Shown: positions 16,318-62,046, numbered from the stretch's first letter. The stretch: DNA of 64,000 nt from an uncultured Planctomycetales bacterium (GCA_964545855.1 CAZJHD010000011.1:41763-105762), one strand, 5' to 3'. Notes: generated by a model from the letters alone, not told the origin. Numbers and translations: made by a program.

Positions 16318-19300
16318 TCAGCGTGGAAGGGCGACCCCTTCGACGGAGAGCGAGCGCAGGAGGATCGCCCCGGTGCAGCGGAGTTCGCACGCATCGCCCG
16401 CGACCGCCGCGTCGAGGCTCGCCACGGCCGCCCCGTCCACCCTCAGGACCGCGCTGCGTCCGTCTTCGGACACGTCGAGCGACAGATCGTGCGTTCCACC
16501 GCGCAGGAACCCCGAGGACCGACGGAAGCCCGGCTCCCAGTGGCGCGGCCAGGGCGCCAGGTCGAGCACCTCGGCGCCGCCGGAGATCAGCTGCGCCGAC
16601 CAGGGGCCTCCGCCGGACGCACGGTGGATCGCGCCGGTGCGTCCGAAGGCCGTGAGACCGTGCACGAGCAGGGACACCGGGTCCGACTCGTAGGGAAGGC
16701 TCGACCGAGCCGTGAAGCGCACGGGACCGCGACCCATCGCCGGCAGCGGGAATCGGAGTGCGGGGGCGCGCCCGAGCCTCGACGCATCCTCCAGCGCCGC
16801 TCCCTCGCACTGGATCCCCGCCGCGGTGCGCCGCCAGCCCTTCGGCACCTCGAGTCCGCTCGGCCCCGGCCCCGCCGCCAGGTCGTAGTCGAGCCGGAGC
16901 CGCCCATCGGGAAGCTCCGACGCGCGCGCGCCGGGGAAGGCGCCCGCGAGCGCTCTCCTCCTCTGGTGCGCGCGCCAGAGGACCTCGAACTCCTCGATCT
17001 CGCGATCGAGATCCGCCACGCGCGGATCTCCGACGTCGAAGCCCACGGCCTCCGTGCGCACCCGCTCGTACTCCGCGCGCGCCTGCTCCATCTCGCCGAT
17101 GCGCGTCAGCTCGCGCGCACGATCGAGCGTCGCGCGGTAGAGGCGCTCCCGCTCCGAGCCAGAGCCTTGGGAGAGCAGCCGGAGGGCGCTCACGTCGGAC
17201 AGCGCGAACGCCGCGAGCTCGGCCTCGGACGCGGAGGCTTCCGGGTCGAGGCGCGCCGCGGCGAACCGGGCCTGCGCGCGATCGAGTTGCCCCTCGGCCA
17301 TCCAGAGGAGGCCGAGCTCGAGCCGCGCGCGGGGCCCCGACTCGGCCGCGACGAGAGTCTCGATCTCCCCGAGCGCGAGCGCCGAGAAGCGGACCTCCGG
17401 GATCGCACCGTCCGCGAGCGTGCCGAGCCAGTCGTCCGCGAGGGACTCCGTCGAGACGAGACGGCCCGACGCGATCGCCCCCGATCGGAGCGAGAGGTTC
17501 ACGCGCGTTCCCACGCGCCGCGCGAGCTCGCGGCCCGCGCGAGCCCGCAGCCCGGCCAGGGCGTCGGCGTACCCGATGCGTCGATCGAGCCTCGCGCGCA
17601 CGGCCGCCAGCTCCGGACGCTCGCGCTCGCTGCGCCAGACTTGCGAGGCGGTGACGTACTGCCGCTCCCGCATGCGCGCCCAAGTGCGCGCCTCGAGCAC
17701 CTCGAACTCGCGCAGCGTGCGCTGCTCCTCGGCCTTGCGGTCGAGGGACGCGAGGGAGTCGTGCAGGTCCTTCGCGAGACCTCCCGGATCGGGAACGACT
17801 TCGAGGGGCCACTGCTGGCGCACGTAGCCCATCTCGCGGAAGACCGTCTCGGCCTCGTCGGCGAACTCGCTCGCCGTCGCCGAGCGCGTTCCCTCGGTGA
17901 CGCCTCGACGCAGGAGCTCGAACTCCGCCTGGAGCCGCGCCGTGATCCGCCGCCCCCGCTCCGCCGCCTCCTGGAGGACGCGCGATCGGATCGACGCCAG
18001 CTCGCCCCGGATCCGCTCGGCGACGGAGTCGCGGGAGATGTCCGGCAGCCTGCGCGGAGCGTCGCCCTGCGGAGTCATGAGCCGGCTCGGCGCGTCGGCG
18101 AGGCGCACGAGCGCGTCGGCGAATCGTCCCTCCTCCACGTGCTGCTGCACGCGCGAAGACTCCTCCTCGAGGAATGCCGGGAGCATCGCGAGGATCGCGG
18201 CCTCGGCGGCGGCGACCTCCTGGCGCAGGTCGCGGCGCTTCGTGTCGAGATAGCGCTCGAAGCGGATCGCGAAGGGGCCCGGCAGGAGCTCGGCTCGACG
18301 GTCGAAGGCCTCGCGCACGCGGCGCGGAAACTCGGTCTCGAGCTGGGTCCATGCTTCGTCGAGCCGGCGCTCCGCGATCCCGGCCGCGAGATCCCGGTCG
18401 ATCTCGCGCTCGAGACCGTCGAAGGCCGCGGAGATCGCCTCTCCGATCGTCGTCTGCAGCGCCGTCGCCCGCAGGCGCCCCGCGTCTTCGAAGGCGCCCG
18501 ACGCCAGCAGGGCGTCGACCCGCGCCCATCGGTCCGCGAGCGCGGCCGGCGAGCCGTCCGCGTCCGTCTCGAGGCGCCCGAGCTCCTCGGCGGCGGCCCG
18601 CGCCGCCGGACTCGGTGCATTCGACCCGAAGAGGCCGAGGCCCGCGCCGGCGAGCAGGACGAGGGTGGCGACCACGACGAGCCCCGCGCCCGACGCGAGC
18701 CCGACGCGAAGCCGAAGGCGAGCGCGCGGATTCACGTCGAAGACGCTGACGGAGGGCCGTTCGTGGCGACGCACGCGCTCCAGGTCGCGAATGACTTCGT
18801 CGGGCGTCTGGTAGCGGCGGGCGGGATCCTTCGCCAGCAACCGCAGCAGGCAGAGCTCGAGGTTTCGGCTGAGGGGCACGTCGGCCGGCACCTGCGCGAC
18901 GGACGACGCGTCGAGCACCTGCGAGAGCACGCCGCCCACGGTCTCGGCGTCGAAGGGAGGCCGCCCCGTCGCGACGTGGAAGAGCGTGGCGCCGAGCGAG
19001 TAGAGGTCGCTCCGCGTGTCCGCCGTGACGGGATCGCGCGCCTGCTCGGGGCTCACGTAGTGCGGCGTGCCGAGGGTGGTGCCCTCCTTCGTGACGCTGG
19101 AGTCGTCCGGACGCCGCGCGAGCCCGAGGTCCGCGAGCTTCAGCGTGCCGTCCTTCGCGAGGAGGAGGTTGCCGGGCTTGATGTCCCGGTGGACGACGCC
19201 GAGCCGGTAGGCGTGGTCGAGCGCGCGAGCCACTTGGAGCCCGAACTCCAGGACCTCGTCCTCCTCGAGGCGACCGCGCTCCCGCAGGACGGTCTTCAGG

Positions 19301-19596
19301 CTCTTCCCGTCGACGAACTCCATCACGAAGTAGGGCACACCGTCGACGTCGCCGTGATCGAGCCCCTTCACGATGTTCGGATGGTCGAGGCGCGCCGAGA
19401 GACGCGCCTCGCGCTCGAGCCTCGCGACGTAGAGGCGATTCCGCGCGAGCTCGCGACGGAGGATCTTCACGGCCACGAGTCGGTCGAGCCCCGCGTGGCG
19501 CGCGAGATACACCGAGCCGACGCCTCCCGAGCCGAGCCGCTCCAGGATCTCCAGGTCCGGGATCGACGGGAATCGCTCTCGGCTCGGCTCGCTCAT
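16318..19596 (-). CDS. Ser/Thr protein kinase with a long helical-repeat region and a C-terminal beta-rich (lectin/LamG-like) domain
   Basis: 1092 codons starting at MSEPSRERF (ATG at 19596-19594, an ATGA overlap with the upstream stop). Hanks motifs: GSGGVGSVY, VAVKIL, HRDIKPGNLLL, DLG, GTPHYVSPE. One TM segment follows the kinase domain. The 5' extension in the track ORF is Arg-rich artefact. Confidence 0.88.
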   Translation of the reverse strand: MSEPSRERFPSIPDLEILERLGSGGVGSVYLARHAGLDRLVAVKILRRELARNRLYVARLEREARLSARLDHPNIVKGLDHGDVDGVPYFVMEFVDGKSLKTVLRERGRLEEDEVLEFGLQVARALDHAYRLGVVHRDIKPGNLLLAKDGTLKLADLGLARRPDDSSVTKEGTTLGTPHYVSPEQARDPVTADTRSDLYSLGATLFHVATGRPPFDAETVGGVLSQVLDASSVAQVPADVPLSRNLELCLLRLLAKDPARRYQTPDEVIRDLERVRRHERPSVSVFDVNPRARLRLRVGLASGAGLVVVATLVLLAGAGLGLFGSNAPSPAARAAAEELGRLETDADGSPAALADRWARVDALLASGAFEDAGRLRATALQTTIGEAISAAFDGLEREIDRDLAAGIAERRLDEAWTQLETEFPRRVREAFDRRAELLPGPFAIRFERYLDTKRRDLRQEVAAAEAAILAMLPAFLEEESSRVQQHVEEGRFADALVRLADAPSRLMTPQGDAPRRLPDISRDSVAERIRGELASIRSRVLQEAAERGRRITARLQAEFELLRRGVTEGTRSATASEFADEAETVFREMGYVRQQWPLEVVPDPGGLAKDLHDSLASLDRKAEEQRTLREFEVLEARTWARMRERQYVTASQVWRSERERPELAAVRARLDRRIGYADALAGLRARAGRELARRVGTRVNLSLRSGAIASGRLVSTESLADDWLGTLADGAIPEVRFSALALGEIETLVAAESGPRARLELGLLWMAEGQLDRAQARFAAARLDPEASASEAELAAFALSDVSALRLLSQGSGSERERLYRATLDRARELTRIGEMEQARAEYERVRTEAVGFDVGDPRVADLDREIEEFEVLWRAHQRRRALAGAFPGARASELPDGRLRLDYDLAAGPGPSGLEVPKGWRRTAAGIQCEGAALEDASRLGRAPALRFPLPAMGRGPVRFTARSSLPYESDPVSLLVHGLTAFGRTGAIHRASGGGPWSAQLISGGAEVLDLAPWPRHWEPGFRRSSGFLRGGTHDLSLDVSEDGRSAVLRVDGAAVASLDAAVAGDACELRCTGAILLRSLSVEGVALPR

Positions 19597-21203
19597 CGAC
19601 GCGGGACCCACTGCGTCCACTCCGCCTCGACTCCCGCCACGTCCAGGCCGAAGGCCTCGCGGAACGCCTGGTCGTGGAAGACGCGCGCCCGGTCGGGGAT
19701 CCGCTGGAGCCCCCAGAGCTTGCGCACGAGCCGGTGGAATCGGTCGAGCCCTCCCGGCGCCTTCTGCGCGAGGAACTGCACGACGCTCATCGACTTGCGC
19801 ACGTCGTCGATCGTCAGGTCCGGGAGGTCCTTCTGCACGATGGCGAGCAGCGATTGCGGACGCCCCGCGGCGATCGAAGCCCTCAGCTCGTCCTCCCAAC
19901 GGCCCGCGCGCGCATCGCTGCGGCGTTCACCGCCGGTGGTCGTGCCCCCGGAGCCCTCCGCGCGGGGAACGGAGCGCGAGTGCGCGCAGAAGATCGTGTT
20001 CCTCTCCCAGGCGGCCGCTTCCGCGAGGCATGCCAGCGCCTCGTCGTACCAGGGCGGCAGCAGCGACGGCACGTGCCCGTGCCGGTTCGCGAGCACGTGG
20101 CCCACGTGGTGGAACGTCTGGCCCGCCGCCTGGTCGAGGTCTCGTCCCCGCAGCAACGCCACGGAAACGCCGAGGGGCTCGTGCACGAAGTAGCCGTGCG
20201 TCCGGCGCGCCCGCTCGTCCCACCCCTCCCAGAGGAAGCGCTTCGACTCGCGGTAGGTCCGGTCGACGGCGCGCCCGTACTCGGCGTCGCCCTCGAGGAC
20301 GATCAGCTCGACGCGCGGGATCGGCTGCGACGCCGGCATCGCGAAGGGCGCCGGGGGGATCCCCGCCGAGAGGACGCTTCCGGCTCCATCGCCGCCGAAG
20401 AGACGATCGAGCGCTCCGAGAGCGCGCTCGCTCCCCTCGGAGACGGTGCGGAGCCACGCCTCCTCGGCCGCTCCCTGGACCGCGAAGTGCGCCGAGAGCA
20501 CGAGCTTCCAGGACGCGACCCCGAACTCGGCCGCCGCTTCGCGGGACCGGAGGCGGAACGGGATCTCCGACGCCTCGATCCAGGCTCCCTCGAAGGACTC
20601 GAGGCCCCGCGCGCGCCGGGCCTCGTCCTCCGTGACCCACCGGTCGCCGAGTCGGACGAGCCCCTTCTCGAGCGCCTCTTTCTCCTCCGGCGCCATCCAC
20701 CGGCCACGGAACTCGACCAGACCCTGGGCCGCGAGCGCCGCAGCCTTCCGCTCCTCGTCGCGGCGTGCCTTCTCCTCCGGCGTCACCCAGTCGTCGCCGT
20801 CGCGCACGCGGCCGAGGGCGCGGTTCGCCGCCTCGTGGCGCGGATCGATCTCCACGGCCGTCTCGAGGCATCTCCGCGCCTCCTTCGACATCCCCTTCTC
20901 GGCGCACCACCGCGAGAGCTCGAACCAGTCGCCGGCCGTCTTCGCGTCGAGGCGTCTCCGCGGGAGCTCCTCCTCCGGCGTCTCCTTCCGCTCGATGCGA
21001 ACGACCGACGCACGCGGCACCTCGATCGTGCCGAACCGCGTCTCGATGCGAACCACGGCGTCGTCCTCCCGCACGATCTTGCCCTCGATCGTCCGACCAT
21101 CGTTCGTCACGACCACGTCGGCGGACGCAGGGGGCGCCGAGGCGAGCGCCGCGGCGGCGAGCACCGCCAGCAGGACGGCGCGGGCCCGGCCTCGGCGGAT
21201 CAC
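19593..21203 (-). CDS. secreted hypothetical protein with GxW(V/M)xxEE repeats
   Basis: 536 aa with a GTG start. The signal peptide is AVLLAVLAAAALASAPPASA. Four spaced repeats are present: DGDDWVTPEE, FRGRWMAPEE, LGDRWVTEDE, FEGAWIEASE. The C-terminal domain has histidines (HHVGHVLANRHGH) but no HExxH. Both gene ends are 4-nt overlaps. Confidence 0.6.
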   Translation of the reverse strand: MIRRGRARAVLLAVLAAAALASAPPASADVVVTNDGRTIEGKIVREDDAVVRIETRFGTIEVPRASVVRIERKETPEEELPRRRLDAKTAGDWFELSRWCAEKGMSKEARRCLETAVEIDPRHEAANRALGRVRDGDDWVTPEEKARRDEERKAAALAAQGLVEFRGRWMAPEEKEALEKGLVRLGDRWVTEDEARRARGLESFEGAWIEASEIPFRLRSREAAAEFGVASWKLVLSAHFAVQGAAEEAWLRTVSEGSERALGALDRLFGGDGAGSVLSAGIPPAPFAMPASQPIPRVELIVLEGDAEYGRAVDRTYRESKRFLWEGWDERARRTHGYFVHEPLGVSVALLRGRDLDQAAGQTFHHVGHVLANRHGHVPSLLPPWYDEALACLAEAAAWERNTIFCAHSRSVPRAEGSGGTTTGGERRSDARAGRWEDELRASIAAGRPQSLLAIVQKDLPDLTIDDVRKSMSVVQFLAQKAPGGLDRFHRLVRKLWGLQRIPDRARVFHDQAFREAFGLDVAGVEAEWTQWVPRR

Positions 21204-23251
21204 TCCTCGCTCTCCTCCTCCGGCGGCTCCGTGTCGTCGGAGGCGCCGGGCGCGTCGATCCCGTACTTCGAGAGCTTGCGCTGGAGGGCGAAGCGCGAGA
21301 TCCCGAGTCGCCGGGCCGTCGCGCTGCGGTTGCCCTGCGTCGCCACGAGGGCCGAGCGGATCGCGCGGATCTCCAGCGAGCGCACGCGCCCCGGGAGCGT
21401 GGAGGCGTCCGTCGCCGCCTCCGGATCGTCGGGCACCTCGGGCTCCCAGTCGCGGATGGCGTCCGACACGAGGTCGGGTCCGATCACGTCGCCGGCGAGC
21501 ACCACGAGGCGCCGCACCTCGTTCTCGAGCTCGCGCACGTTGCCGGGCCAGTCGTAGGCGCGGAAGTGGTCGAGCACGACGGGATCGATGCGCTTCAGCG
21601 GCACGCCGGCCTCGCGGCAGCGCTGCACCAGGAATCGCTCCACGAGCAGCGCGATGTCCTCCTTCCGCTCCCGCAGGGGCGGCAGCCGCAGCGGCAGCAC
21701 GTTCAGCCGGTAGTAGAGATCCTCGCGGAACTGCTTCGCCTTCACGCGCTCCGTCAGGTCCGCCTGGGAGGCGCAGATGATCCGCACGTCGATCGGGAGA
21801 GGCGTCTCCGAGCCGATGGGACGGATCTCCCCCTCCTGCAGCGCCCGAAGGAGGCTCTTCTGCATCTCGCTCGACATCTCGGCGACCTCGTCGAGGAAGA
21901 GCGTCCCTCCGTGGGCGAGCTCGAAGAGACCCTTCTTGGCCCGGTGGGCGCCCGTGAAGGCACCCTTCGAGTGGCCGAAGAGCTCGCTCTCGAGGAGCGT
22001 GTCCTGGATCGCCGCGCAGCTCGCGCTCACGAAGGACTTGTCGCCCCGCGCCCCGTTCGTGTGGATCGCCCGCGCCACGAGCTCCTTTCCGGTGCCGCTA
22101 TCGCCGGTGATGAGGACGGGTGCGTCGGAGCCCACGAGCCGATCCAGCAGCCGGAAGACCGACCGCATGGCCGGGCTCTCGCCGACGATCGAGCGATAGT
22201 CGTAGCGGCTCCGGAGATCCCCGCGGGCGAGCGCCGCCTCCTCGCGCACCCGCGCCAGCGCCTCCTCTCCCTTCTCCAGGCGCCCCGCCAGGTCGAGGGC
22301 GCGCACCTCGAGCTGCGCGCGCGAGGCCGCGAGCGCCCGGTTGGCCTCCCGCAGCTCGTCCATCGCGCGCGCATTCGCGAGCGTGATGCCCGCCTGGTCG
22401 GCGAGAGCCTCCAGCAGATCGATCTCGTCGTCTCCGAAGAGCGCCCGCTGCAGTCGGTTGTCGACGACGATCACGCCTTCGGTCTTGTCGCGCACGCGCA
22501 GCGGCACCGCCAGGAGCGAGCGGAGCTCCAGATCGACGACGGACCGGAAGTCGGCGAAGCGCTCGTCGGAGAGAGCGTCCGAGGAGATGATCGGCCGCCC
22601 GTTCGCGAGCACGTCCTCGACGATCTTCCGCGAGAGCTTCTCCTCCGGGAGCGGCACCACCTCCCGCGCGAAGTTCCGCGCGACGCGGAACTCGAGCCGG
22701 CCCCCGTCGCCCGTGCGGGCGTCGCCTCCGCTGCGAACGGCGAGGAAACCCCGCTCCGCGCGCGTCAGCGTGATCGCCGAGTCGACGATCAGATCGAAGA
22801 GGGCGGCGATGTCGCGCGCCGAGTTGATGGCGCGGTTGATGCGCTGGAGGACCAGAAGGTTGTCGCGCTCGCGCGTCAGCTCCTGGACGAAGGTCTCGTG
22901 CCCGCCGGCGGGGAGCGACGCGATCCGCGTGTTCCGCATCGCGGGGTCCGTCGACTCGTCGAGGTCGCCGATGCCGATGCGCGTCTTCCCGATGACGATC
23001 CAGTCTCCCGCCGAGAGGACCGCGCGGTCGACCACCTCGCCGTTCACCTGCGTCCCGTTGGCCGAGCCCGAGTCCGTGAGGACCAGCCCCGATCCCTGGA
23101 TCTCGATCTTCGCGTGGTGGCGCGAGGCGAGACCGTCCCGGAGCCGGAGATGGTTGTCGAGGGCCCGTCCGATGGTGATGACCGGCTGGTCCAGCTCGAC
23201 GACGGTGCTGGAGCCGTCCTCCACGACGGTGAGGCGGATCGACGCGGCCAT
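21200..23251 (-). CDS. sigma-54-dependent transcriptional activator with FHA and GAF N-terminal domains
   Basis: I placed the start at MAASIRL (ATG at 23251-23249). The FHA domain reads ...ITIGRALDNHLRLRDGLASRHHAKIE...DSGSANGTQVNG. A GAF-like middle domain follows. The AAA+ domain has Walker A GDSGTGKE, the sigma-54 contact loop GAFTGA, and Walker B LFLDEV. The C-terminus has a Fis-type HTH (NRSATARRLGISRFALQRKL). Confidence 0.9.
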   Translation of the reverse strand: MAASIRLTVVEDGSSTVVELDQPVITIGRALDNHLRLRDGLASRHHAKIEIQGSGLVLTDSGSANGTQVNGEVVDRAVLSAGDWIVIGKTRIGIGDLDESTDPAMRNTRIASLPAGGHETFVQELTRERDNLLVLQRINRAINSARDIAALFDLIVDSAITLTRAERGFLAVRSGGDARTGDGGRLEFRVARNFAREVVPLPEEKLSRKIVEDVLANGRPIISSDALSDERFADFRSVVDLELRSLLAVPLRVRDKTEGVIVVDNRLQRALFGDDEIDLLEALADQAGITLANARAMDELREANRALAASRAQLEVRALDLAGRLEKGEEALARVREEAALARGDLRSRYDYRSIVGESPAMRSVFRLLDRLVGSDAPVLITGDSGTGKELVARAIHTNGARGDKSFVSASCAAIQDTLLESELFGHSKGAFTGAHRAKKGLFELAHGGTLFLDEVAEMSSEMQKSLLRALQEGEIRPIGSETPLPIDVRIICASQADLTERVKAKQFREDLYYRLNVLPLRLPPLRERKEDIALLVERFLVQRCREAGVPLKRIDPVVLDHFRAYDWPGNVRELENEVRRLVVLAGDVIGPDLVSDAIRDWEPEVPDDPEAATDASTLPGRVRSLEIRAIRSALVATQGNRSATARRLGISRFALQRKLSKYGIDAPGASDDTEPPEEESEE

Positions 23252-30499: not shown

Positions 30500-32244
30500 G
30501 CACGCCGCGCGTTCCCGGGAGCCAGGTGCTGTGCGCCCACCTCGCACGGCTCGGAGCGCGGTGCGTCTTCGGCGTGCCGGGCACGCAGAACGTGGAGGTC
30601 TTCGAGGCGCTGCGCCGCTCGACGATCCGCACGATCGGCGCGACCCACGAGCTCGCCGCGGCCTTCATGGCGAACGGCTGGGCGCGCGCGACGGGCCGGC
30701 CCGGAGTGGTCGTCACGATCCCCGGTCCCGGCTTCGCGATGACGCTCCCGGCCCTCGCCGAGGCGCGGCTCGATTCCACACCGTTGCTCGTGATCACCGG
30801 AAACCCTGTGGCGCCCGGCGGACGCCGCTTCCAGCTCCAGGAGATCGACCAGCGCGCCCTCTCCGCACCCGTCGCGAAGCAGTTCTTCGCCGTGGAGAAG
30901 GCGATCGAGATCGGACGCACGATCCAGGAGGCGCACGAGGTAGCGCTCCGCGGCGAGCCGGGACCGGTCGTCGTGCAGGTCGCGCGGGCGGCCCTCGCCG
31001 AGCTCGAGGTCGCGCCGCCGGAGCGCGCGGCGGCGCCGCTGCTGACGCCGATCCCGGGCGACTTCGGGAAGTTCGAGGAGGCGTTCGCGGCCCTCGTCGC
31101 GGCGCGGCGCATCGCGCTCCTCGTGGGGCAGGGAGCGTGCGGCGTGGCCGGCGGGGTGCAGCAGATGGCGGAGTGGCTGCAGTCCCCCGTCGTCACGACC
31201 ACGTCCGGCCGCGGAATCCTGCCGGAGGATCATCCGCTCGCGTTCCCGCTCGACCTGGTCGGCGACCGCTTCGACGACCTGAACGAGCTGCTGGGCTCCT
31301 GCGACCGCATCCTCGCCATCGGGTGCAAGCTCGGTCACAACGGCACCGGCGGCTACCGGCTCCAGCTCGCGCCGGAGAAGCTGCTCCACGTCGACGCCGC
31401 CGATCACGTGCTGGAGGCGAACTACCCGGCCTCCCTCGCCATTCGCGGCGACGCCGTCGAGTTCGTCCGCTTCTGCCTCCGTCGCCGCGACGACGCGCCG
31501 GAGCGGGCGCTCGCGTGGAACCTGGGCGAGCTCCAGCGCTGGCAGGATCGTCTGCGGAGCACCTCGGGATCGCCGGATGCCCTCGAGCCCCGCTTCCCCG
31601 ACTTCTCCCCGCCGACGGCCGCCTCCTTCTTCGGCGCGCTGCGCCGCGCGCTGCCGAAGGAGGGCGTCCTCGTGACCGACTCGGGGCTGCACCAGCTGCT
31701 CGCGCGCAAGCACTTCACGGTCCTCGGCGCGCGGACGTTCCTCGTGCCGACCGACTTCCAGTCGATGGGGTTCGGCATCCCCGCCGCCGCCGGAGCCAAG
31801 CTCGCGCAGCCGGAGCGGCCCGTCGTCGCGCTGATCGGCGACGGCGGTTTCGCGATGACGGGCCTCGAGCTCCTGGCCCTCGTCCGGGAGCGCGTCCCGA
31901 TCACCGTCGTGGTCCTGAACGACGGCCAGCTCGGTCTGATCCGATTGAAGCAGCTCGCCGAGTACGGCATTCCCTTCGCGACCGATCTCCACAACCCCGA
32001 CTTCGAGAAGCTGGCGGAGTCGATCGGCGTCTCCTACGACCGCATCGACGGAGACGGCGAAGCGACGCTCCGCCGCGCGATCGGGTCCGGCAAGCCCGGG
32101 ATCGTCGAGGTGCGCGTCTCCGATTCCCTCGACATGCACAAGATCCGAGCCAAGGGCCTCGCCCGCGACACGGCCGAGCGCGTCCTCGGGCCCCAGGGCC
32201 TCGAGTGGCTGAGGGACCGCGCCCGGCGCTTCGGCATCGGCTGA
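30496..32244 (+). CDS. thiamine-diphosphate-dependent enzyme (acetolactate synthase-like family)
   Basis: These are the last 582 codons of track ORF 27403..32244. The ATG at 30496 forms an ATGA overlap with the upstream stop. The N-terminal PYR domain reads GVPGTQNVEVFEAL...THELAAAFMANGWARATGRPGVVV.IPGPG. The C-terminal ThDP-binding motif reads GDGGFAMTGLELLALVRERVPITVVVLNDG. Confidence 0.85.
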   Translation: MSTPRVPGSQVLCAHLARLGARCVFGVPGTQNVEVFEALRRSTIRTIGATHELAAAFMANGWARATGRPGVVVTIPGPGFAMTLPALAEARLDSTPLLVITGNPVAPGGRRFQLQEIDQRALSAPVAKQFFAVEKAIEIGRTIQEAHEVALRGEPGPVVVQVARAALAELEVAPPERAAAPLLTPIPGDFGKFEEAFAALVAARRIALLVGQGACGVAGGVQQMAEWLQSPVVTTTSGRGILPEDHPLAFPLDLVGDRFDDLNELLGSCDRILAIGCKLGHNGTGGYRLQLAPEKLLHVDAADHVLEANYPASLAIRGDAVEFVRFCLRRRDDAPERALAWNLGELQRWQDRLRSTSGSPDALEPRFPDFSPPTAASFFGALRRALPKEGVLVTDSGLHQLLARKHFTVLGARTFLVPTDFQSMGFGIPAAAGAKLAQPERPVVALIGDGGFAMTGLELLALVRERVPITVVVLNDGQLGLIRLKQLAEYGIPFATDLHNPDFEKLAESIGVSYDRIDGDGEATLRRAIGSGKPGIVEVRVSDSLDMHKIRAKGLARDTAERVLGPQGLEWLRDRARRFGIG

Positions 32245-32283
32245 TGGCGCGGGGACCGGCGGCGCCCGAGGCCGCGGTGTTGG

Positions 32284-32769
32284 CTGCCCGTGGTTGAGAG
32301 TCTCCGCAGAGCGAGCGCGAGGCAGCGGCGCACAGCGCGAGGCGCGCGCCGCAGACGTAGCGGGAGGTTACGGTGAGGACGCGCAACGACGCGATGGGCG
32401 TCGGGGCCCGCGCGCAGCTCGGATGACTTCTGCCACGGGCAGTGGACTGCCCGTGGCGGAAGGGCTCCGCAGAGCGAGCGCGAGGCAGCGGCGCACAGCG
32501 CGAGGCGCGCGCCGCAGACGTAGCGGGAGGTTACGGTGAGGACGCGCAACGACGCGATGGGCGTCGGGGCCCGCGCGCAGCTCGGATGACTTCTGCCACG
32601 GGCAGTGGACTGCCCGTGGCGGAAGGGCTCCGCAGAGCGAGCGCGAGGCAGCGGCGCACAGCGCGAGGCGCGCGCCGCAGACGTAGCGGGAGGTTACGGT
32701 GAGGACGCGCAACGACGCGATGGGCGTCGGGGCCCGCGCGCAGCTCGGATGACTTCTGCCACGGGCAGT
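32284..32769. repeat. tandem array of about 3 copies of a 163-nt non-coding unit with 16-nt terminal inverted repeats
   Basis: CTGCCCGTGG recurs at 32284, 32447 and 32610, a period of exactly 163. Copies 2 and 3 are identical. Copy 1 differs only in an 8-nt patch. Unit junctions form the hairpin CTTCTGCCACGGGCAG-TGGA-CTGCCCGTGGCGGAAG at 32427-32462 and 32590-32625. Confidence 0.95.
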
Positions 32770-32817
32770 TACACTCCGCGGCTTTCTCCCTGACTCCAAG
32801 CCGCTCCGAACCCTCCC

Positions 32818-34617
32818 TTGGCCGACTCCTCGATCCGCAACTTCTGCATCGTTGCGCACATCGACCACGGCAAGTCCACGCTCGCCGACCGGTTCCTGGA
32901 ACTCACGGGCACGATCGAGAAGCGGGAGATGCGGGAGCAGACGCTCGACGGCATGGACCTCGAGCGGGAGCGCGGCATCACGATCAAGGCGAAGGCCGTG
33001 GCGATGCGCTATCGCCACGAGGGCGTCGAGTACCGCCTGAACATGATCGACACGCCGGGGCACGTCGACTTCGCCTACGAGGTGATGAAGAGCCTCCAGG
33101 CCTGCGAGGGAGCGCTCCTCCTAGTCGACTCCTCCCAGGGCGTCGAGGCCCAGACGGTCGCGAACGCGCACCTCGCCATGAACGCCGGGCTCACGATCAT
33201 CCCGGTCCAGAACAAGATCGATCTGCCCCACGCGCACCCGGACGAGGTCGACCAGGAGATCGAGAACTCCCTCGCCCTCCCTCGGGAGGACTGCATCCGG
33301 GTCTCCGCGAAGACGGGAGAGAACGTCGAGCAGATCCTCCACGCGATCATCGAGAGGATCGCGCCGCCCGAGGGCGACGCCGAGAAGCCGCTCCGGGCCC
33401 TCGTCTTCGACTCCGTCTACGACGACTACGTCGGCGTGATCGTCTACCTGAGGCTCGTCGACGGCCGCATCCGCAAGCGCGATCGGATCGTCATGCTCGG
33501 GACGGGCCGCGGCTACGAGGTCCTCGAAGTGGGCGTCTTCCGCCCCAAGAAGCAGCCCGTGGAGGGGCTCGAGGCGGGCGAGGTGGGCTACGTCGTCGCC
33601 GGCATCAAGCGACTCCAGGACGTCCGCATCGGCGACACGGTCACCGCCGACAAGGGAGAGCGCGCCGAGCTGCTCCCGGGCTACGTGGAGCCGAAGCCGA
33701 TGGTCTTCTGCGGGCTCTACCCGACGAACCACGCCGACTACGAGGCCCTCCGCGAAGCGCTCGACAAGCTCGCGCTCAACGACGCGTCCTTCACCTACGA
33801 GCCGGAGACCTCCGAGGCCCTCGGCTTCGGCTTCCGCTGCGGGTTCCTCGGTCTGCTCCACATGGACGTGGTGCAGGAGCGCATCGAGCGCGAGAGCAAC
33901 ATCGACATCATCACGACGGCTCCGTCGGTGGGCTACGAAGTGCTCATGAACGACGGATCGGCGCGGCGCATCCGGAGCGCCGCCGAGGTGCCCGATCCCT
34001 CCACCTTCGACGAGTTCCGGGAGCCGATCGTCCACCTCTCGCTCCTCGTCCCGACGGAGTCGATCGGCCCGATGATGAGCCTCTGCATCGAGCGTCGCGG
34101 GACGTACGTGAAGACCGACTACCTCTCGCCGACGCGCGCCCTCCTCGTGTTCGACGTCCCCCTCGGCGAGATCCTCTTCGACTTCTACGACAAGCTGAAG
34201 AGCGCCACGCGCGGCTACGGAACGATGGACTACGAGTTCGCCGGGTACCGGACCGCCGACCTCGTGAAGTGCCGCATCCTCGTCGGCGGATCCGAGGTGG
34301 ACGCCCTGTCGACGATCGTCGAGCGCGGCCAGGCCGAGCGCCGTGGCCGCGCGGTCCTGCTGAAGCTCCGCAAGGAGATCCCGCGCCACCTCTTCGAGGT
34401 CGTGCTCCAGGCGGCGATCGGCGGCAAGGTCGTCGCGCGGGAGTCGATCCGCGCCCTCTCGAAGAACGTGATCTCGAAGTGCTACGGCGGCGACATCACG
34501 CGCAAGCGCAAGCTCCTGGAGAAGCAGAAGGAGGGGAAGAAGCGCATGAAGTCGGTCGGGAACGTGGAGATCCCCCAGAAGGCGTTCCTCGCCGTGCTCA
34601 AGACGGGCGACGAATGA
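32818..34617 (+). CDS. lepA: translation elongation factor 4
   Basis: 599 aa with a TTG start. The sequence reads IRNFCIVAHIDHGKSTLADRFLELTG, DLERERGITIKA, IDTPGHVDF, NKID, and it has the LepA-specific C-terminal domain. Confidence 0.95.
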   Translation: MADSSIRNFCIVAHIDHGKSTLADRFLELTGTIEKREMREQTLDGMDLERERGITIKAKAVAMRYRHEGVEYRLNMIDTPGHVDFAYEVMKSLQACEGALLLVDSSQGVEAQTVANAHLAMNAGLTIIPVQNKIDLPHAHPDEVDQEIENSLALPREDCIRVSAKTGENVEQILHAIIERIAPPEGDAEKPLRALVFDSVYDDYVGVIVYLRLVDGRIRKRDRIVMLGTGRGYEVLEVGVFRPKKQPVEGLEAGEVGYVVAGIKRLQDVRIGDTVTADKGERAELLPGYVEPKPMVFCGLYPTNHADYEALREALDKLALNDASFTYEPETSEALGFGFRCGFLGLLHMDVVQERIERESNIDIITTAPSVGYEVLMNDGSARRIRSAAEVPDPSTFDEFREPIVHLSLLVPTESIGPMMSLCIERRGTYVKTDYLSPTRALLVFDVPLGEILFDFYDKLKSATRGYGTMDYEFAGYRTADLVKCRILVGGSEVDALSTIVERGQAERRGRAVLLKLRKEIPRHLFEVVLQAAIGGKVVARESIRALSKNVISKCYGGDITRKRKLLEKQKEGKKRMKSVGNVEIPQKAFLAVLKTGDE

Positions 34618-36062
34618 GCGCCGCCAAGTCCGCTCCGGCCGACGTGCCGCGCCATCCATGGCGCGAGAACCTGGAGACCGCGGCCGTCGCGATCGTGATG
34701 GCGCTGGTGCTCAAGTACTTCACCCTGGAGGCGTTCCAGATCCCGACGGGCTCGATGCAGCCGACGCTCATGGGCCTCGACGCGACGCGAGGGAACGCGG
34801 GCGGCTCCGGGGTCCGCGTCTTCGACCGCATCCTCGTCGACAAGCTCGTGCCCTTCTTCCGCGACCCCGAGCGCTGGGAGGTGTGGGTGTTCCTGTTCCC
34901 CCTGGACCGGTCGAACCGCTACATCAAGCGCGTCGTCGGCATGCCGGGCGAGGAGCTCAAGGTCGCCTTCGGCGACCTCTTCGTGCGGCGCACGCCGCAG
35001 GAGGAGTGGAAGATCCTGCGGAAGCCGCGGCACGTGCAGGACGCTGCGTGGCGCGAAGTCTGGCGCAGCGACCAGGGCGAGCGGATCGGCGACTACTTCG
35101 ACCTGACGGGCTTCGTGGAGAAGGACGGCCAGGCCGTGGGATCGGGCGCCGCGACCGCGTCGTCGCGGCGGCAGATCCTCGACGGATACACGGACGGCTA
35201 CCCGGACGCGCTCCGCGCGGCGCTCCGCGAGTCGGGCCGGATCGTGCACGGGCAGTCGTCGGTGCGCGATCTGCGGCTCCGCATGGACGTGCGGCCCGAT
35301 GCGCAGCACCGGCTCCTCACGCTCCTCCTCGACTGGAGCGGCGACCAGCTCCGGGCCGAGGTCTCCGGTCCCTCCGGCGACGGCAAGGTGCGCCTCCTGT
35401 TGAACGACCGGCCCCTCGCCGAGGGAACGGCGCGGCTACGGCTCGATCGCGCGAACTCCGTCGTCTTCGAGCGCGCCGACGAGACGGCGCGGCTGCTGGT
35501 GAACGGCGAGGAGGTGGCGCGGCAGGAGTTCACGAGCTCCACGCGGCCCGAGCAGGCGACCATGGGCATCCAGCCGCCCAATCGCGTGAAGTTCGAGACC
35601 GAGGGCGGGACGCTGCGTCTGGAGCACGTCGGCGTCGATCGCGACAACCACTACACCAATCGCATCGGCAACCAGGAGTTCTGGTCCGTCTCGATCCCGG
35701 AGAACGAGTACTTCATGATGGGAGACAACTCCTCGGACAGCGCCGATGGCCGTGCGTGGATGAGCGTGTCCGTGGATCTCGCGACTCCCGTCGACGGCAA
35801 GAGGAAGCTCGAGGGCGGCACGATGACCTCCGGCGAGCACGCGGGCCCCAACCCTCGCTTCGCACGCACGGCGCGCAACGGTGCGACGGAGATGATCTTC
35901 CGCGACGAGTGGGGCGAGGAATACCGCTACACGCAGGGCGCGGCGAGCGCACCGTCGGCGCAGCACACCGTTCCTCGCGATCATTTCCTCGGACGCGCGA
36001 TCTTCGTGTTCTGGCCGTTCCCTCCGCTCGCTCCCGTCGCGCGGTTCAAGGCCGTCCACTGA
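34614..36062 (+). CDS. lepB: signal peptidase I (long form)
   Basis: 482 codons from the ATG at 34614, an ATGA overlap with the lepA stop. It has a TM anchor, the catalytic Ser box IPTGSMQPTL, the Lys box YIKRVVGMPGE, and MMGDNSSDSADGR. The upstream part of track ORF 34269..36062 overlaps lepA, so I rejected it. Confidence 0.88.
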   Translation: MSAAKSAPADVPRHPWRENLETAAVAIVMALVLKYFTLEAFQIPTGSMQPTLMGLDATRGNAGGSGVRVFDRILVDKLVPFFRDPERWEVWVFLFPLDRSNRYIKRVVGMPGEELKVAFGDLFVRRTPQEEWKILRKPRHVQDAAWREVWRSDQGERIGDYFDLTGFVEKDGQAVGSGAATASSRRQILDGYTDGYPDALRAALRESGRIVHGQSSVRDLRLRMDVRPDAQHRLLTLLLDWSGDQLRAEVSGPSGDGKVRLLLNDRPLAEGTARLRLDRANSVVFERADETARLLVNGEEVARQEFTSSTRPEQATMGIQPPNRVKFETEGGTLRLEHVGVDRDNHYTNRIGNQEFWSVSIPENEYFMMGDNSSDSADGRAWMSVSVDLATPVDGKRKLEGGTMTSGEHAGPNPRFARTARNGATEMIFRDEWGEEYRYTQGAASAPSAQHTVPRDHFLGRAIFVFWPFPPLAPVARFKAVH

Positions 36063-39188: not shown

Positions 39189-39460
39189 CGCTCCCCCCTG
39201 CGCGCCTGCCTTCGGCAGGACGCGCGTCCCCTAAGGCGACCGAGACCGCTCCCCCCTGCGCGCCTGCATTCGGCAGGACGCGCGTCCCCTAAGGGGACCG
39301 GAGATCGCTCCCCCCTGCGCGCCTGGCGTTGCTCCCTTCCCGCAGAGCGGCGCCGGCAGGACGCGCTGTCCCCTAGGGGGACCGAGAGGTTTCCCCCTCG
39401 CGCTCCCGGCTTTGCTCCCATGCCGCGGAGCAGCGATGCCGGGACGCGTCGGGTTGCGGC
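39189..39460. repeat. four tandem REP-like units (two-hairpin palindromic elements) directly 3' of tRNA-Val
   Basis: The units lie at about 39189-39245, 39246-39304, 39305-39387 and 39388-39460. The consensus is GCTCCCCCCTGCGCGCCTGC-NNNN-GCAGGACGCGCG-TCCCCTAAGGGGACCGAGA. Units 3 and 4 carry enlarged or degenerate loops. The same family recurs at 58603-58720. Confidence 0.85.
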
Positions 39461-56908: not shown

Positions 56909-58602
<1,694 letters not shown>

Positions 58603-58720
58603 GTCTCCCCCCTGAGCGCCTGCCTACGGCAGGACGCGTTGTTCTTCGTGGAGCCTGTCCCCTCGGGGGACGAGAGGTCTCCCCCCTGAGCGCCTGCATC
58701 CGGCAGGACGCGTTGCGCCT
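58603..58720. repeat. two REP-like units of the same family as at 39189-39460
   Basis: Unit 1 (58603-58676): AGTCTCCCCCCTGAGCGCCTGCCTACGGCAGGACGCG...CTGTCCCCTCGGGGGACGAGA. Unit 2 (58677-58720): GGTCTCCCCCCTGAGCGCCTGCATCCGGCAGGACGCG. They start at the base after the ftsB stop. Confidence 0.8.
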
Positions 58721-58725
58721 CTTCT

Positions 58726-58827
58726 CCCGGGAATGGGGTCAGACCCCTTTTCCCTCGCTCGCTCACGCGCCGCGCGTGCGCGGCGCGTGAGCGAGCGAGA
58801 GAAAAGGGGTCTGACCCCATTCCCGGG
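58726..58827. repeat. 102-nt near-perfect palindrome (~50-nt arms), possible bidirectional terminator
   Basis: The left arm is CCCGGGAATGGGGTCAGACCCCTTTTCCCTCGCTCGCTCACGCGCCGCGCG. The central GT at 58776-58777 is followed by the reverse-complement arm, ending CCCGGG at 58827. There is a single mismatch (C vs T). It lies between the convergent ftsB and M16 peptidase genes. Confidence 0.9.
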
Positions 58828-58847
58828 TGCTCACTCCGCGCGGCCCG

Positions 58848-61781
58848 TCACCGCCCGTCGCCGCTGCCCGCGGGCACCGGCGCGCCCTTCGCGGGAGCCG
58901 ACGCCGGCACGCTCGGCTTCGCCGCCGTCACGACGGCGAACGACGCGCGCGCCCGGCCGAGCCAGCGCTTCGCGAGCGGCGTGAGGTCGGCCGGCGCGAG
59001 CTTCTCGTGGAAGGACACCTGCGAATGGATGTCCTCGACGGCGGTCTCGTCGCGGTGGATGCGCGCGAGCGCGTTCACCCAGTACTCGTTCGTCCGGCGC
59101 GAGTCCTTGATCGCCGCCAGCATCGGCTCCTTCACGCGCGCGAGTTCGTCCTCCTGGACGCCCTCGGTCGCGAGACCATCGGCGGCCGCGAGGCACGCCT
59201 CCACCAGCGCCTTCTCGACGCCCGGCTCCGCCTGCGCCATCACCTGCACGAAGCCGTCCCCCGGGAACGTTTGGCTCAGCTCCGCGCGCGCGCCCGGCGA
59301 GTAGGACGCACCGAGCTTCTCGCGCACGTCGACGCGGAGCCGGTCCGAGAGCAGCGACGCGAGCACGTCGAACTTGCGCCGAGCCTCCGTCTCGCGGCCG
59401 TCGGGAGTCGGGAAGTAGATCGAGACGAGCGATCGCGGGACTTTCGAGTCGATCTCGTACGTCCGCTCCAGACCCGTGCGCAGCACGACGGGAGTTCGCC
59501 GCTCGTCCATCGGCCGCACCGCGGCGCGCACCGGGAGCGCGCCGAAGGTGCGTGCGGCCGCCTGCACCACCGCCTCGACGTCGAGGTCGCCGACCACCGT
59601 GAGGTCGAGAGCGCCCGTCGCGAGCTGCGGCTCGAGCCAGGCTCGGATCCGCTCCATCGTGATCGACTCCAGCTCCTCCCGCGTCGGGAACGACGTGCGC
59701 ACGTCGCCGGAAGCGAACTCCGGTCGGAACTGCTGCATCAGCGGGCCCTCGGGCTGGTGGCGCAGCGACTCGAACAGGAGCGGGATCTGCTCCGCGAAGC
59801 GCGTCAGCCCGTCGGGCCTCCAGCCCGGATCGGCCATGTAGGCCGTCGCCAGCTCGAAGCCGAGCAGAAGGTCGTCCTTCGTCGTGGAGCCCTGGAACAC
59901 GAAGCGGTCGTCCACGCTGTCGAAGACGACGGACGCCTGGCGCCCGGCCATCAGCCGGCGGATCGCGTCGTCGTCGTGCGCGCCGAGGCCGCCGCGGATG
60001 AAGACCTCGGGACCCGCCATCGAGAGCGCGCGGTCCTTCGCGTCGAAGGCGAGCTCGCCCTCGCCGAGCTGGGCCATCCAGAGGATCTGCCGATCGCGGA
60101 AGTCGGTCTTCTTCACGAAGAGACGCACTCCGTTCGCGAACTCCACCCGATCGGCGTCGAGCGCGTCGTCGTGCTTGCGGCTCGCGATCGCCCCCGCCTT
60201 CGCCGCGTCGGAGGGATAGGCGAAGGGCTTCGCCTCCATCGCCGCGCGCGGACTCACCGTCTTCGCGCGGCTCGCCGCGAGCGCCGCCGAGAGCGCCGCG
60301 TCCGCGCCCTCTCCGAGGGGAACGTTGCCGATCATGCTCACGCGGAGCTCCCCCTGGCCCCAGGCCTCGGCGAGCGCCCGGTGGCAGTCTTCCGCCTTCA
60401 TCGCCTCGAGCGCCGGCTTCAGCAGCGCGCGGCGCGTCGCCGCGTCCGCCACCACGACGCGCCGGCCCGCGGCGGAGGTGATCTCCGACACCCACGCGAC
60501 GCTCGACCGCGTCGCCTCGCGCTCGGCGGCCTCCTCGAGCTGGCGGATCTCGTTCGCGCGCACCTCGACGAGCTCCTCGGCGTCGAAGCCGTGCTCGACG
60601 GCGCGGCGCAGCTCGCGGTCGGCGCGATCGAGCGCCTTCTCCCAGTTGTCGGGAGTCGCCACGACGACGAGACCTTCGCCCGCGATCACCGGGACGCCGA
60701 GGCCCTCGGCGAGCTGCCGCAGGTCGAGCGCGCTCGCGTTCAGGAACGGCGCCCCCTGCTTCTTGCGGATCTCCGCGAGCCGGAGGTTCAGCATCGCGCG
60801 CGCCATGTCGAGCGGGAGGCGCTCCCGCACCGACTTCGCCGTGACGGGACGCTCCACGCCGGGCGTCACCTGGTCGATCTCCATGATGACGACGGGGATC
60901 TCCGGCTCCTTCACCACGAACACCGGGAACGCGTCCGAGAGCTCCCCGAGGGGCGGCTGCTTCGCCGCCTTGCCCGCCGCGCCCGCGAAGCTCGCGAAGG
61001 CCTCGCGCACGAGCGGCTCCGGATCAAGATCGCCCAGATCGCCGACGAGGACGAGGGTCGTGTTCTCGGGCCGGTACCACTTCTCGTAGAAGGCGCGGAC
61101 CGACTCGGGAGTGAATCCGTCGCGCGCCTCCTTGGCGCCGATCGGCAGCCGCGACGGCACGCGCGTCCCGTCGAGCTTCTTCCGGAGACCCTCGATCTGC
61201 GCGCGGAACTGCGCGCTGTCGCGCTCCCGCTCCTCGGCATCGATGATCCCGCGCTCCGCCGCCACCTCCTTCGCTTCGAGGAGCGCGCCGTCGGCGAAGT
61301 CGCGCAGGACCTTCAGCCCCTCGGCGAGCGTCGCGGCGTCGGTGCGCGGCAGATCGATCTGGTAGATCGTCTCGGAGAAGCTCGTGGACGCGTTCGTGTC
61401 GGCGCCGAAGGCCATGCCGTGCTTCTGGAACCACTCCACCAGCGTTCCGGCCGGGAACGACCGCGTGCCGTTGAACACCATGTGCTCGAGGTAGTGGGCC
61501 ATGCCGCGCTCGCTCTCCTCCTCGGCGAGACTCCCGACGTCCACGTGGAGCCGCAGGTAGCTGCGGTCCTTCGGCTCGACGTTCGCCATCCACGCGAAGC
61601 GCATTCCGTTCGGGAGATGACCGAAGCGGATCCGCGGCGAGACCGCGACGTCGGAGGTCTCGTGCTCCCAGGGGCGAACCTCCGCGGGACGCGCCTGCGC
61701 GAGGGCCGGCGGAACGAGCGCCGAGGAGACGAGGACGATCGGGAGGACGAGCGCCGCGGCGGCGCGGAAGGATCGGAGCAT
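58848..61781 (-). CDS. secreted M16 (pitrilysin/insulinase) family zinc peptidase, double-length form
   Basis: 977 aa with a signal peptide. It has the inverted zinc motif HYLEH (HxxEH) with downstream glutamates, and four M16-type half-domains. Confidence 0.88.
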   Translation of the reverse strand: MLRSFRAAAALVLPIVLVSSALVPPALAQARPAEVRPWEHETSDVAVSPRIRFGHLPNGMRFAWMANVEPKDRSYLRLHVDVGSLAEEESERGMAHYLEHMVFNGTRSFPAGTLVEWFQKHGMAFGADTNASTSFSETIYQIDLPRTDAATLAEGLKVLRDFADGALLEAKEVAAERGIIDAEERERDSAQFRAQIEGLRKKLDGTRVPSRLPIGAKEARDGFTPESVRAFYEKWYRPENTTLVLVGDLGDLDPEPLVREAFASFAGAAGKAAKQPPLGELSDAFPVFVVKEPEIPVVIMEIDQVTPGVERPVTAKSVRERLPLDMARAMLNLRLAEIRKKQGAPFLNASALDLRQLAEGLGVPVIAGEGLVVVATPDNWEKALDRADRELRRAVEHGFDAEELVEVRANEIRQLEEAAEREATRSSVAWVSEITSAAGRRVVVADAATRRALLKPALEAMKAEDCHRALAEAWGQGELRVSMIGNVPLGEGADAALSAALAASRAKTVSPRAAMEAKPFAYPSDAAKAGAIASRKHDDALDADRVEFANGVRLFVKKTDFRDRQILWMAQLGEGELAFDAKDRALSMAGPEVFIRGGLGAHDDDAIRRLMAGRQASVVFDSVDDRFVFQGSTTKDDLLLGFELATAYMADPGWRPDGLTRFAEQIPLLFESLRHQPEGPLMQQFRPEFASGDVRTSFPTREELESITMERIRAWLEPQLATGALDLTVVGDLDVEAVVQAAARTFGALPVRAAVRPMDERRTPVVLRTGLERTYEIDSKVPRSLVSIYFPTPDGRETEARRKFDVLASLLSDRLRVDVREKLGASYSPGARAELSQTFPGDGFVQVMAQAEPGVEKALVEACLAAADGLATEGVQEDELARVKEPMLAAIKDSRRTNEYWVNALARIHRDETAVEDIHSQVSFHEKLAPADLTPLAKRWLGRARASFAVVTAAKPSVPASAPAKGAPVPAGSGDGR

Positions 61782-62046
61782 GGAGCGTGTCGCGCCCTCG
61801 GGGGCGCCTCGGAGGGAATCGCGCCGCGACGACGTCGCCAGCCGCGAAACGGGCGGAGCAGCATACGGGGAGGCGGATCCGGAGGTGGGGACCCGCCACG
61901 ACGCCGGCCCCTCCCGGCGCGCCGCAGCGCCGAGCCTGACGGATTCAACCGTCTCTGTCTGTTCGTCGAGGGAGCCGGCAACGCCGGCGGGACGAAGGCA
62001 GAATCGATCTCTCCTCTTGCCCCATCGAGTCGGGCATTCTGTCTAG

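Follow-up and report, generated by a model that had tools for sequence, protein, structure and literature searches.

The tandem array upstream of lepA in this uncultured Planctomycetales bacterium is, with a probability that we put at roughly three in four, made of a miniature, non-coding and non-autonomous foldback element of the MITE type, 159 bp long, with terminal inverted repeats (TIRs) of 16-17 bp and about 40 bp conserved at each end. It is not a conserved RNA gene or a regulator of lepA. Among the explanations offered when the DNA was read without database searches (the sequence-only reading), that of a tandem, TIR-bounded, non-autonomous element has held up in its MITE form, because relatives are dispersed in both orientations, with 4-bp target-site duplications, in a second Planctomycetota genome, MAG-28. 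We regard it as a new MITE family of the Planctomycetota, distinguished by clear target-site duplications in MAG-28 and by an unusual head-to-tail triplet here. The value of this is descriptive and leaves current understanding unchanged. For annotation, it shows that perfect tandem intergenic repeats in high-GC metagenome-assembled genomes can be mobile-element arrays, and that the spurious ORFs running across them should not be called.

Layout of the array

The triplet occupies positions 32284-32768 of the window, i.e., the whole 64,000-nt stretch that was analysed, which has a GC content of 71.6%. As first described, the array is bounded by the end of a thiamine-pyrophosphate (TPP) enzyme gene (30517-32244, + strand), whose stop lies 40 nt before it, and by the TTG start of lepA (elongation factor 4; 32818-34617, + strand), 49 nt after it; lepB follows at about 34632-36062. 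TRF places the array at 32284-32769, with a period of 163, 3.0 copies, 98% matches and a score of 937 (246 for the runner-up in the window), and a repeat search likewise found three copies at spacings of 163 and 163. The three-copy array and its period therefore stand as claimed, but 163 nt is not the natural unit. The array is exactly three whole elements of 159 nt, CTGCCCGTGG...CCACGGGCAG, with the 4-nt spacer TGGA between neighbours: E1 (32284-32442), E2 (32447-32605) and E3 (32610-32768), all on the + strand, with spacers at 32443-32446 and 32606-32609. The left flank, TTGG (32280-32283), is a direct repeat of neither the right flank nor the spacer and is one substitution from TTAG; the right flank, TTAC (32769-32772), is one substitution from TTAG or TTAA. 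On both sides, homology ends exactly at the element termini, which points to events defined by the element rather than to random duplication.

The copies are as similar as had been reported. Compared at a shift of 163, E2, the canonical copy, and E3 are completely identical over 160 nt, and the longest run identical at that shift spans 305 nt (32302-32606). E1 has a variant left arm, with five substitutions relative to E2 (32294, 32295, 32298, 32299 and 32301), all inside the 8-nt patch 32294-32301, where it reads TTGAGAGT and E2 reads CGGAAGGG; it still scores 121 bits in the CM search and folds at -97.9 kcal/mol. Searched on both strands, the 16-nt terminal motif occurs in the 64 kb solely at the six element ends, its few 3-mismatch matches are at chance level, and no further copy was found in the window outside the array. 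One extra CM match (21764-21841, 26.5 bits, E 0.012) was dismissed, as it lies inside a sigma-54 activator gene.

The array is non-coding, as had been proposed: the period is not a multiple of 3, one relative (L011) carries a 1-nt indel, and a minus-strand read-through frame, which crosses all three reading frames of the unit, had no homologue in the protein collection. The + strand of the array is rich in G and A. The earlier failure to recognise an RNA family is likewise borne out by Rfam, which at its gathering threshold reported one tRNA only in the window. A permissive scan of the array returned eukaryotic miRNA models as its best matches. These scored 19 bits where the cut-offs are 55-268 bits, and the hairpin formed at the element junctions is responsible for them.

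Dispersed relatives and their target sites

A scan of one genome per GTDB species with the pattern CTGCCCGTGGC-N(122-152)-GCCACGGGCAG returned 22 loci: seven in the Planctomycetota MAG-28 (JAEUHX01, GCA_016792805.1), one in a Vicinamibacterales chromosome and 14 unrelated ones of varied length that we attribute to chance. MAG-28 holds at least seven intact copies on seven contigs, each 159-160 nt long and in both orientations, together with decayed copies. The MAG-28 copies are 93-97% identical to one another and 72-75% identical to the window unit. Perfect 4-bp repeats flank four of the seven intact copies (CTAA/CTAA three times and TTAG/TTAG once), two more match at three of four positions (CTAG/CTAA and ATAA/ATAG), and the seventh is mismatched (TGAA/TTCA); a decayed copy (L015:866-995) lies between CTAG and CTAG. 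Since these flanks co-vary from copy to copy, they represent duplicated target and not element sequence. The window array, in contrast, has no target-site duplication, its flanks being TTGG and TTAC and its spacers TGGA. The intact MAG-28 copies all lie clear of long high-GC3 ORFs. For five of them Pfam identified a neighbouring gene, in each case of housekeeping type (for example efp, enoyl-CoA hydratase, alcohol dehydrogenase, or a PDZ or TPR protein); most of the five copies sit downstream of the 3' end of a gene. MAG-28 also contains a solo right-end fragment (L015:3758-3785) and a decayed, inverted copy (L020:3342-3497) 9 nt from an intact one. Another locus (L024:7661-7759, - strand) forms a 101-nt hairpin with the element's inner blocks CAAAAGTGCTCC ... 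GCGCGCAGCTCGGATGACTTTTG; its outer stem differs (GGAGGACG.../...CGTCCTCC) and it lacks a clear target duplication. It could represent either a rearranged copy or a second subfamily.

Judged from sequence, the 4-bp flanking repeats in MAG-28 (CTAA, TTAG, CTAG) are the signature of a MITE mobilised by a DDE transposase with an IS5-like YTAR target. The element ends would serve as binding sites for a DDE transposase whose gene lies in another part of the genome and which would make 4-bp staggered cuts at YTAR-like targets in the manner of IS5. IS5 ends begin with GG, whereas the element termini, CTGCCCGTGGC, do not; the likeness to IS5 lies in the length of the duplication, 4 bp, and in its sequence in the MAG-28 copies. 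The target duplication of IS5 is 5'-YTAR-3', 4 bp (PMC5009759), and elements of the IS701 family also produce 4-bp duplications (PMC2266710). The family resembles IS701 in this length, but its termini depart from the IS701 end consensus, ---YACT-Y--YR (PMC2266710). An approximate TIR search of the window and the loci examined returned MITE ends only, with no autonomous IS or transposase bearing the element termini, and no transposase was found among the Pfam-tested ORFs of the window and beside the MAG-28 copies.

How does the element compare with known MITEs? MITEs are defined as non-coding, gene-adjacent elements of 70-300 bp, with TIRs of 15-30 bp and robust secondary structure (PMC3733652); at 159 bp, and with TIRs of 16-17 bp, the element lies within both ranges. 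It shares these sizes and its lack of coding capacity with Correia/NEMIS of Neisseria, ERIC/IRU and YPAL of enterobacteria, RUP of S. pneumoniae and Nezha of cyanobacteria, and it also resembles them in its whole-element hairpin and, as seen in MAG-28, in its dispersed, gene-adjacent copies and its short target-site duplications (PMC3733652). It differs from described bacterial MITEs in its host phylum, the Planctomycetota, and in having three copies head to tail with 4-nt spacers, and it showed no sequence similarity to them in a literature string search, a plasmid BLAST or Rfam. Correia and RUP duplicate TA, unlike the 4-bp YTAR duplicated by this family in MAG-28. The plasmid BLAST gave no match to the element, the terminal 11-mers were absent from the relevant literature by string search, and our literature search found neither an earlier account of this element nor a described MITE family in the Planctomycetota.

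Scans of metagenomes and viruses added no members to the family. Strict termini had no match in the metagenome scan, and the terminal pattern had none in the viral scan. Four matches to a conserved 18-20-mer in further metagenome and viral scans are read as chance because their surroundings are non-repetitive and nothing beyond the seed resembles the element. The Vicinamibacterales locus (L001:7357-7515 on chromosome OZ253576.1) folds over its full 159 nt into one hairpin (z -7.8). It has 15 nt at the left terminus and 11 nt at the right in common with the family, but its interior is unrelated, its flanks show no duplication, and the 3' end of a CoxE-like VWA gene lies partly within it. On the strength of the shared ends, it may be a cross-phylum relative with the same putative transposase-binding termini. 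A 148-nt perfect palindrome in a Chloroflexi MAG (L018:4883-5030), on a 5-kb contig and 32 nt from its end, was set aside as a chance match, the search pattern itself being palindromic. It might be a genuine hairpin element, or else a foldback artefact of assembly.

Origin of the triplet at a synteny breakpoint

The window LepA is 100% identical to one NCBI protein, and its next matches, at 84-86%, are in Planctomycetota MAGs, including MAG-28 (85%). Four such relatives (L023, L024, L029 and L030) carry lepB, an ABC ATPase and ETF beta and alpha downstream of lepA, in synteny with the window, and the upstream side varies among them. By blastn and CM search, none of the four (LepA 84-86%) has the element upstream of lepA. 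This lack of synteny argues against another early suggestion, a regulatory array in the lepA-lepB leader. In L029 and L030, about 7.7 kb separates lepA from an Acetyltransf_6-TPP gene pair upstream of it, with a large Pyr_redox_2/RP005_N gene and others between, and those intervening genes are absent from the whole 64-kb window. Here the order runs from TPP to array to lepA with about 7.7 kb of genes missing, and the array therefore lies at a synteny breakpoint, where it may record an element-mediated deletion. Intergenic DNA of the window and the relatives is not alignable, so the deletion end-points cannot be refined. The TTG start of lepA stands in the context TTGGC[CA]GA in the window and all four relatives, with no obvious Shine-Dalgarno sequence upstream.

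Two features, outer flanks that do not match and some 7.7 kb lost between TPP and lepA, suggest a deletion associated with the element, either by recombination between two copies or by adjacent deletion. Our preferred account is that the triplet arose locally. A tandem dimer would have formed first, by double insertion or through a transposase-made head-to-tail junction carrying donor flank; unequal exchange or replication slippage would then have added one unit and kept the units identical, in a homogenisation that spared only the 18 nt of E1 at the very edge of the array. The deletion that brought the TPP and lepA regions together would also have replaced one or both outer flanks, possibly when a variant copy lying downstream of TPP recombined with a copy, or an array, upstream of lepA. 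Recombination of this kind would account for the unmatched flanks, for the restriction of differences to the leftmost 18 nt and for the missing 7.7 kb. It is reasonable to conclude that amplification was recent in the past or that homogenisation is active. Tandem expansion by unequal exchange is documented for eukaryotic transposons (McGurk & Barbash 2018, PMC5932611), and eukaryotic tandem dimers and TE-derived satellites resemble our case in that a DNA transposon lies head to tail at one site and can be expanded by unequal exchange (PMC5932611). The present array differs from eukaryotic TE arrays (PMC5932611) in that it lies in a bacterial chromosome, has three units only, and has a spacer unlike its outer flanks. 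Should the copy number hold, the array is a small-scale bacterial case of a transposon becoming a tandem array.

Three predictions do not agree with the sequence. Repeated insertion into a regenerated target predicts spacers equal to the outer flanks, whereas TGGA is seen against TTGG and TTAC. Plain tandem duplication of the flanks fails to yield TGGA for every left/right split of the four nucleotides. Templating of the E1 patch from the element's own right arm predicts CAGAAGTC, and TTGAGAGT is seen.

Alternatively, the triplet could be a frozen transposase product, in which a multimer made elsewhere, with TGGA as its donor flank, was inserted whole into a TTAG-like site upstream of lepA. 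Some IS families form abutted-end junctions as circles or tandem dimers, and the spacers at the head-to-tail junctions here do have the length of the target-site duplication, as such junctions would. Both spacers are one and the same foreign 4-nt sequence, underivable from the present flanks; the abrupt end of homology at the element termini on both sides also fits; and a single substitution turns either TTGG or TTAC into TTAG, a YTAR tetramer, in a window where YTAR tetramers are very rare (11 in 64 kb). However, the family was found without a transposase, IS5-type elements offer to our knowledge no precedent for tandem-dimer intermediates, and the E1 patch is left unexplained. In addition, no further head-to-tail junction turned up among the MAG-28 loci examined. 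On this balance we consider whole insertion of a multimer unlikely.

An assembly artefact in the copy number is improbable to about the same degree. Under this explanation there would be two real copies, E1 and one canonical, and the assembler would have made one pass too many through the repeat loop. The window derives from a MAG contig, and the stretch identical at shift 163 is 305 nt, which exceeds short reads and the usual k-mers, so that short reads alone cannot count passes through the loop; the third copy thus hangs on the assembler's handling of a 305-nt exact repeat. Nevertheless, two or more copies must be real, because the variant left arm of E1 and the junction ...GGGCAG-TGGA-CTGCCCGTGGCGGAAGGG are distinct and come with unique flanks. 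Expansion of such loops by an assembler is also less usual than their collapse, and the identity of the element is unaffected either way.

Folding, a possible regulatory RNA and other palindromes

Each unit forms one long imperfect hairpin, or palindrome. The MFE of the + strand is -103.2 kcal/mol, compared with -78.3 +/- 3.9 for shuffles (z -6.4), and that of the complementary strand is -87.8 kcal/mol (z -4.75). This full-length hairpin had been missed in the sequence-only reading, whose junction hairpins are nonetheless present, with their TGGA loop, at 32427-32462 and 32590-32625; they fold at -38.4 kcal/mol (z -7.1) and are a trivial consequence of abutting terminal inverted repeats. The TIRs themselves are also as first described, 16 nt with one G-T pair (32447-32462 and 32590-32605 in E2), and in the MAG-28 copies the outer stem is perfect and extends to 17 bp. 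A small internal hairpin proposed at the same time, CGACGC/GCGTCG, falls outside the MFE fold of the whole unit. Shuffle tests gave z -12.7 for the MAG-28 element and z -7.8 for the Vicinamibacterales element.

Conservation is concentrated towards the ends. Positions 1-10, 19-39 and about 122-159 of the element are invariant between the window and MAG-28, and E2 contains blocks identical to the MAG-28 copies at about 32464-32485 and 32570-32591 (+ strand). The central stem is only about 50% identical, and both versions pair. In a model-fitted alignment, which leans towards structure, 94% of cells are standard pairs compared with 38-48% in slid controls. Seven pairs are altered on both sides; as the comparison comprises essentially two lineages plus the doubtful L001, this covariation amounts to one divergence. 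Mutations private to single MAG-28 copies mostly break pairs, as neutral decay after insertion predicts. The upkeep of pairing in so diverged a centre is not required of a plain MITE that needs only its TIRs.

An alternative is to see in this fold a structured RNA exapted for regulation, either as a hairpin RNA of about 160 nt or as part of a TPP-lepA read-through transcript, which might act as a stabiliser, an RNase III/RNase E target or a terminator-like barrier, or through a purine-rich, Shine-Dalgarno-like apical loop. The fold is very stable, the central stem shows compensatory changes, and every family member folds better by 7-17 kcal/mol in the orientation that is '+' in the window. A conserved stem, CGUAGC/GUUACG, carries an apical loop of purines in both lineages, GGGAG in the window (hairpin at 32519-32535 in E2, + strand) and AAGGA in MAG-28. 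Moreover, most copies with an identifiable neighbour lie 3' of a gene, and MITE folds have been reported to influence neighbouring genes (PMC3733652). Against these points, no Rfam family matches; no sigma-70-like promoter or intrinsic-terminator-like site, and no U-tract, was found in 31900-33100; copies lie in both orientations relative to neighbouring genes; and the element is not syntenic in the relatives. Single-copy mutations mostly break pairs, and the apical loop of the Vicinamibacterales relative is different. G-U counts show no clear excess that would explain the energy asymmetry between strands, which we therefore take as a weak hint only. Altogether, a regulatory role for the RNA seems distinctly unlikely. 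Under the MITE reading, any effect on lepA would be incidental, the result of a highly stable fold, in RNA or DNA, that lies between two genes running in the same direction.

The proposal of a tandemly amplified small-RNA gene loses its footing on similar grounds: Rfam has no match, promoter- and terminator-like sites are absent, and the copies decay by pair-breaking changes. Tandem bacterial sRNA genes do resemble the array in having near-identical structured units of about 100-200 nt, head to tail and intergenic. The element differs from them in being mobile (target-site duplications, dispersal and both orientations in MAG-28), non-syntenic and without a promoter/terminator signature.

More speculative still, and in our view highly doubtful, is a combined scheme of a mobile hairpin module. 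Selection on one strand would keep the full pairing and a Shine-Dalgarno-like purine apex, the transposase would make multimers that become frozen, and the triplet would serve as a structural barrier that insulates or tunes lepA-lepB after the deletion behind TPP.

Y1/HUH transposases are not known to leave target duplications, and PATEs have subterminal hairpins without TIRs, insert 3' of a fixed tetra- or pentanucleotide and likewise leave no target duplication. A REPIN or REP doublet mobilised by RAYT, or an IS200/IS605-type PATE, both sub-options of the original mobile-element proposal, is thus very improbable: the repeat is long, hairpin-forming, intergenic and sometimes clustered, and REPs are reported in Planctomycetes (PMC3733652), but the element has, in its MAG-28 copies, 4-bp target duplications that co-vary between flanks (CTAA/CTAA, TTAG/TTAG, ATAA/ATAG) and true TIRs with the termini CTGCCC.../...GGGCAG, it has no GTAG/CGTC tag, and no tyrosine-transposase or RAYT gene was found in the ORFs tested. 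REP, BIME and REPIN systems with RAYT resemble the family as intergenic palindromic repeats that cluster, reiterate in tandem and often lie at the 3' ends of genes. The element differs from REPs in its length (a single REP has 20-40 bp, and the element is four to eight times as long), in its true TIRs and target-site duplications, and in showing neither tag nor RAYT.

Some features elsewhere in the window deserve mention in their own right. ARAGORN calls a 99-nt tRNA-Arg(gcg) at 17470-17568 (- strand), which is probably a false positive because it lies within a Ser/Thr protein-kinase ORF (16318-19926, - strand) and is unreported by Rfam. A second repeat family, with a unit of about 58 nt, CGCTCCCCCCTGCGCGCCTGC-cTTCG-GCAGGACGCG...GTCCCCTAAGGGGAC, that forms two short hairpins, occurs at 39189-39435 and 58603-58697. 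Three to four of its units stand in tandem directly 3' of tRNA-Val(CAC), and two diverged copies lie just past a gene stop 19 kb away; the repeat is absent from all other loci examined. Finally, a near-perfect palindrome of about 104 nt (CCCGGGAATGGGGTCAGACCCCTTTTCCCTCGCTCGCTCACGCG...) at 58726-58830 separates the end of one ORF (56909-58330, + strand) from the 3' end of another (58848-62042, - strand). The genome from which the window comes appears to be rich in intergenic palindromic elements.
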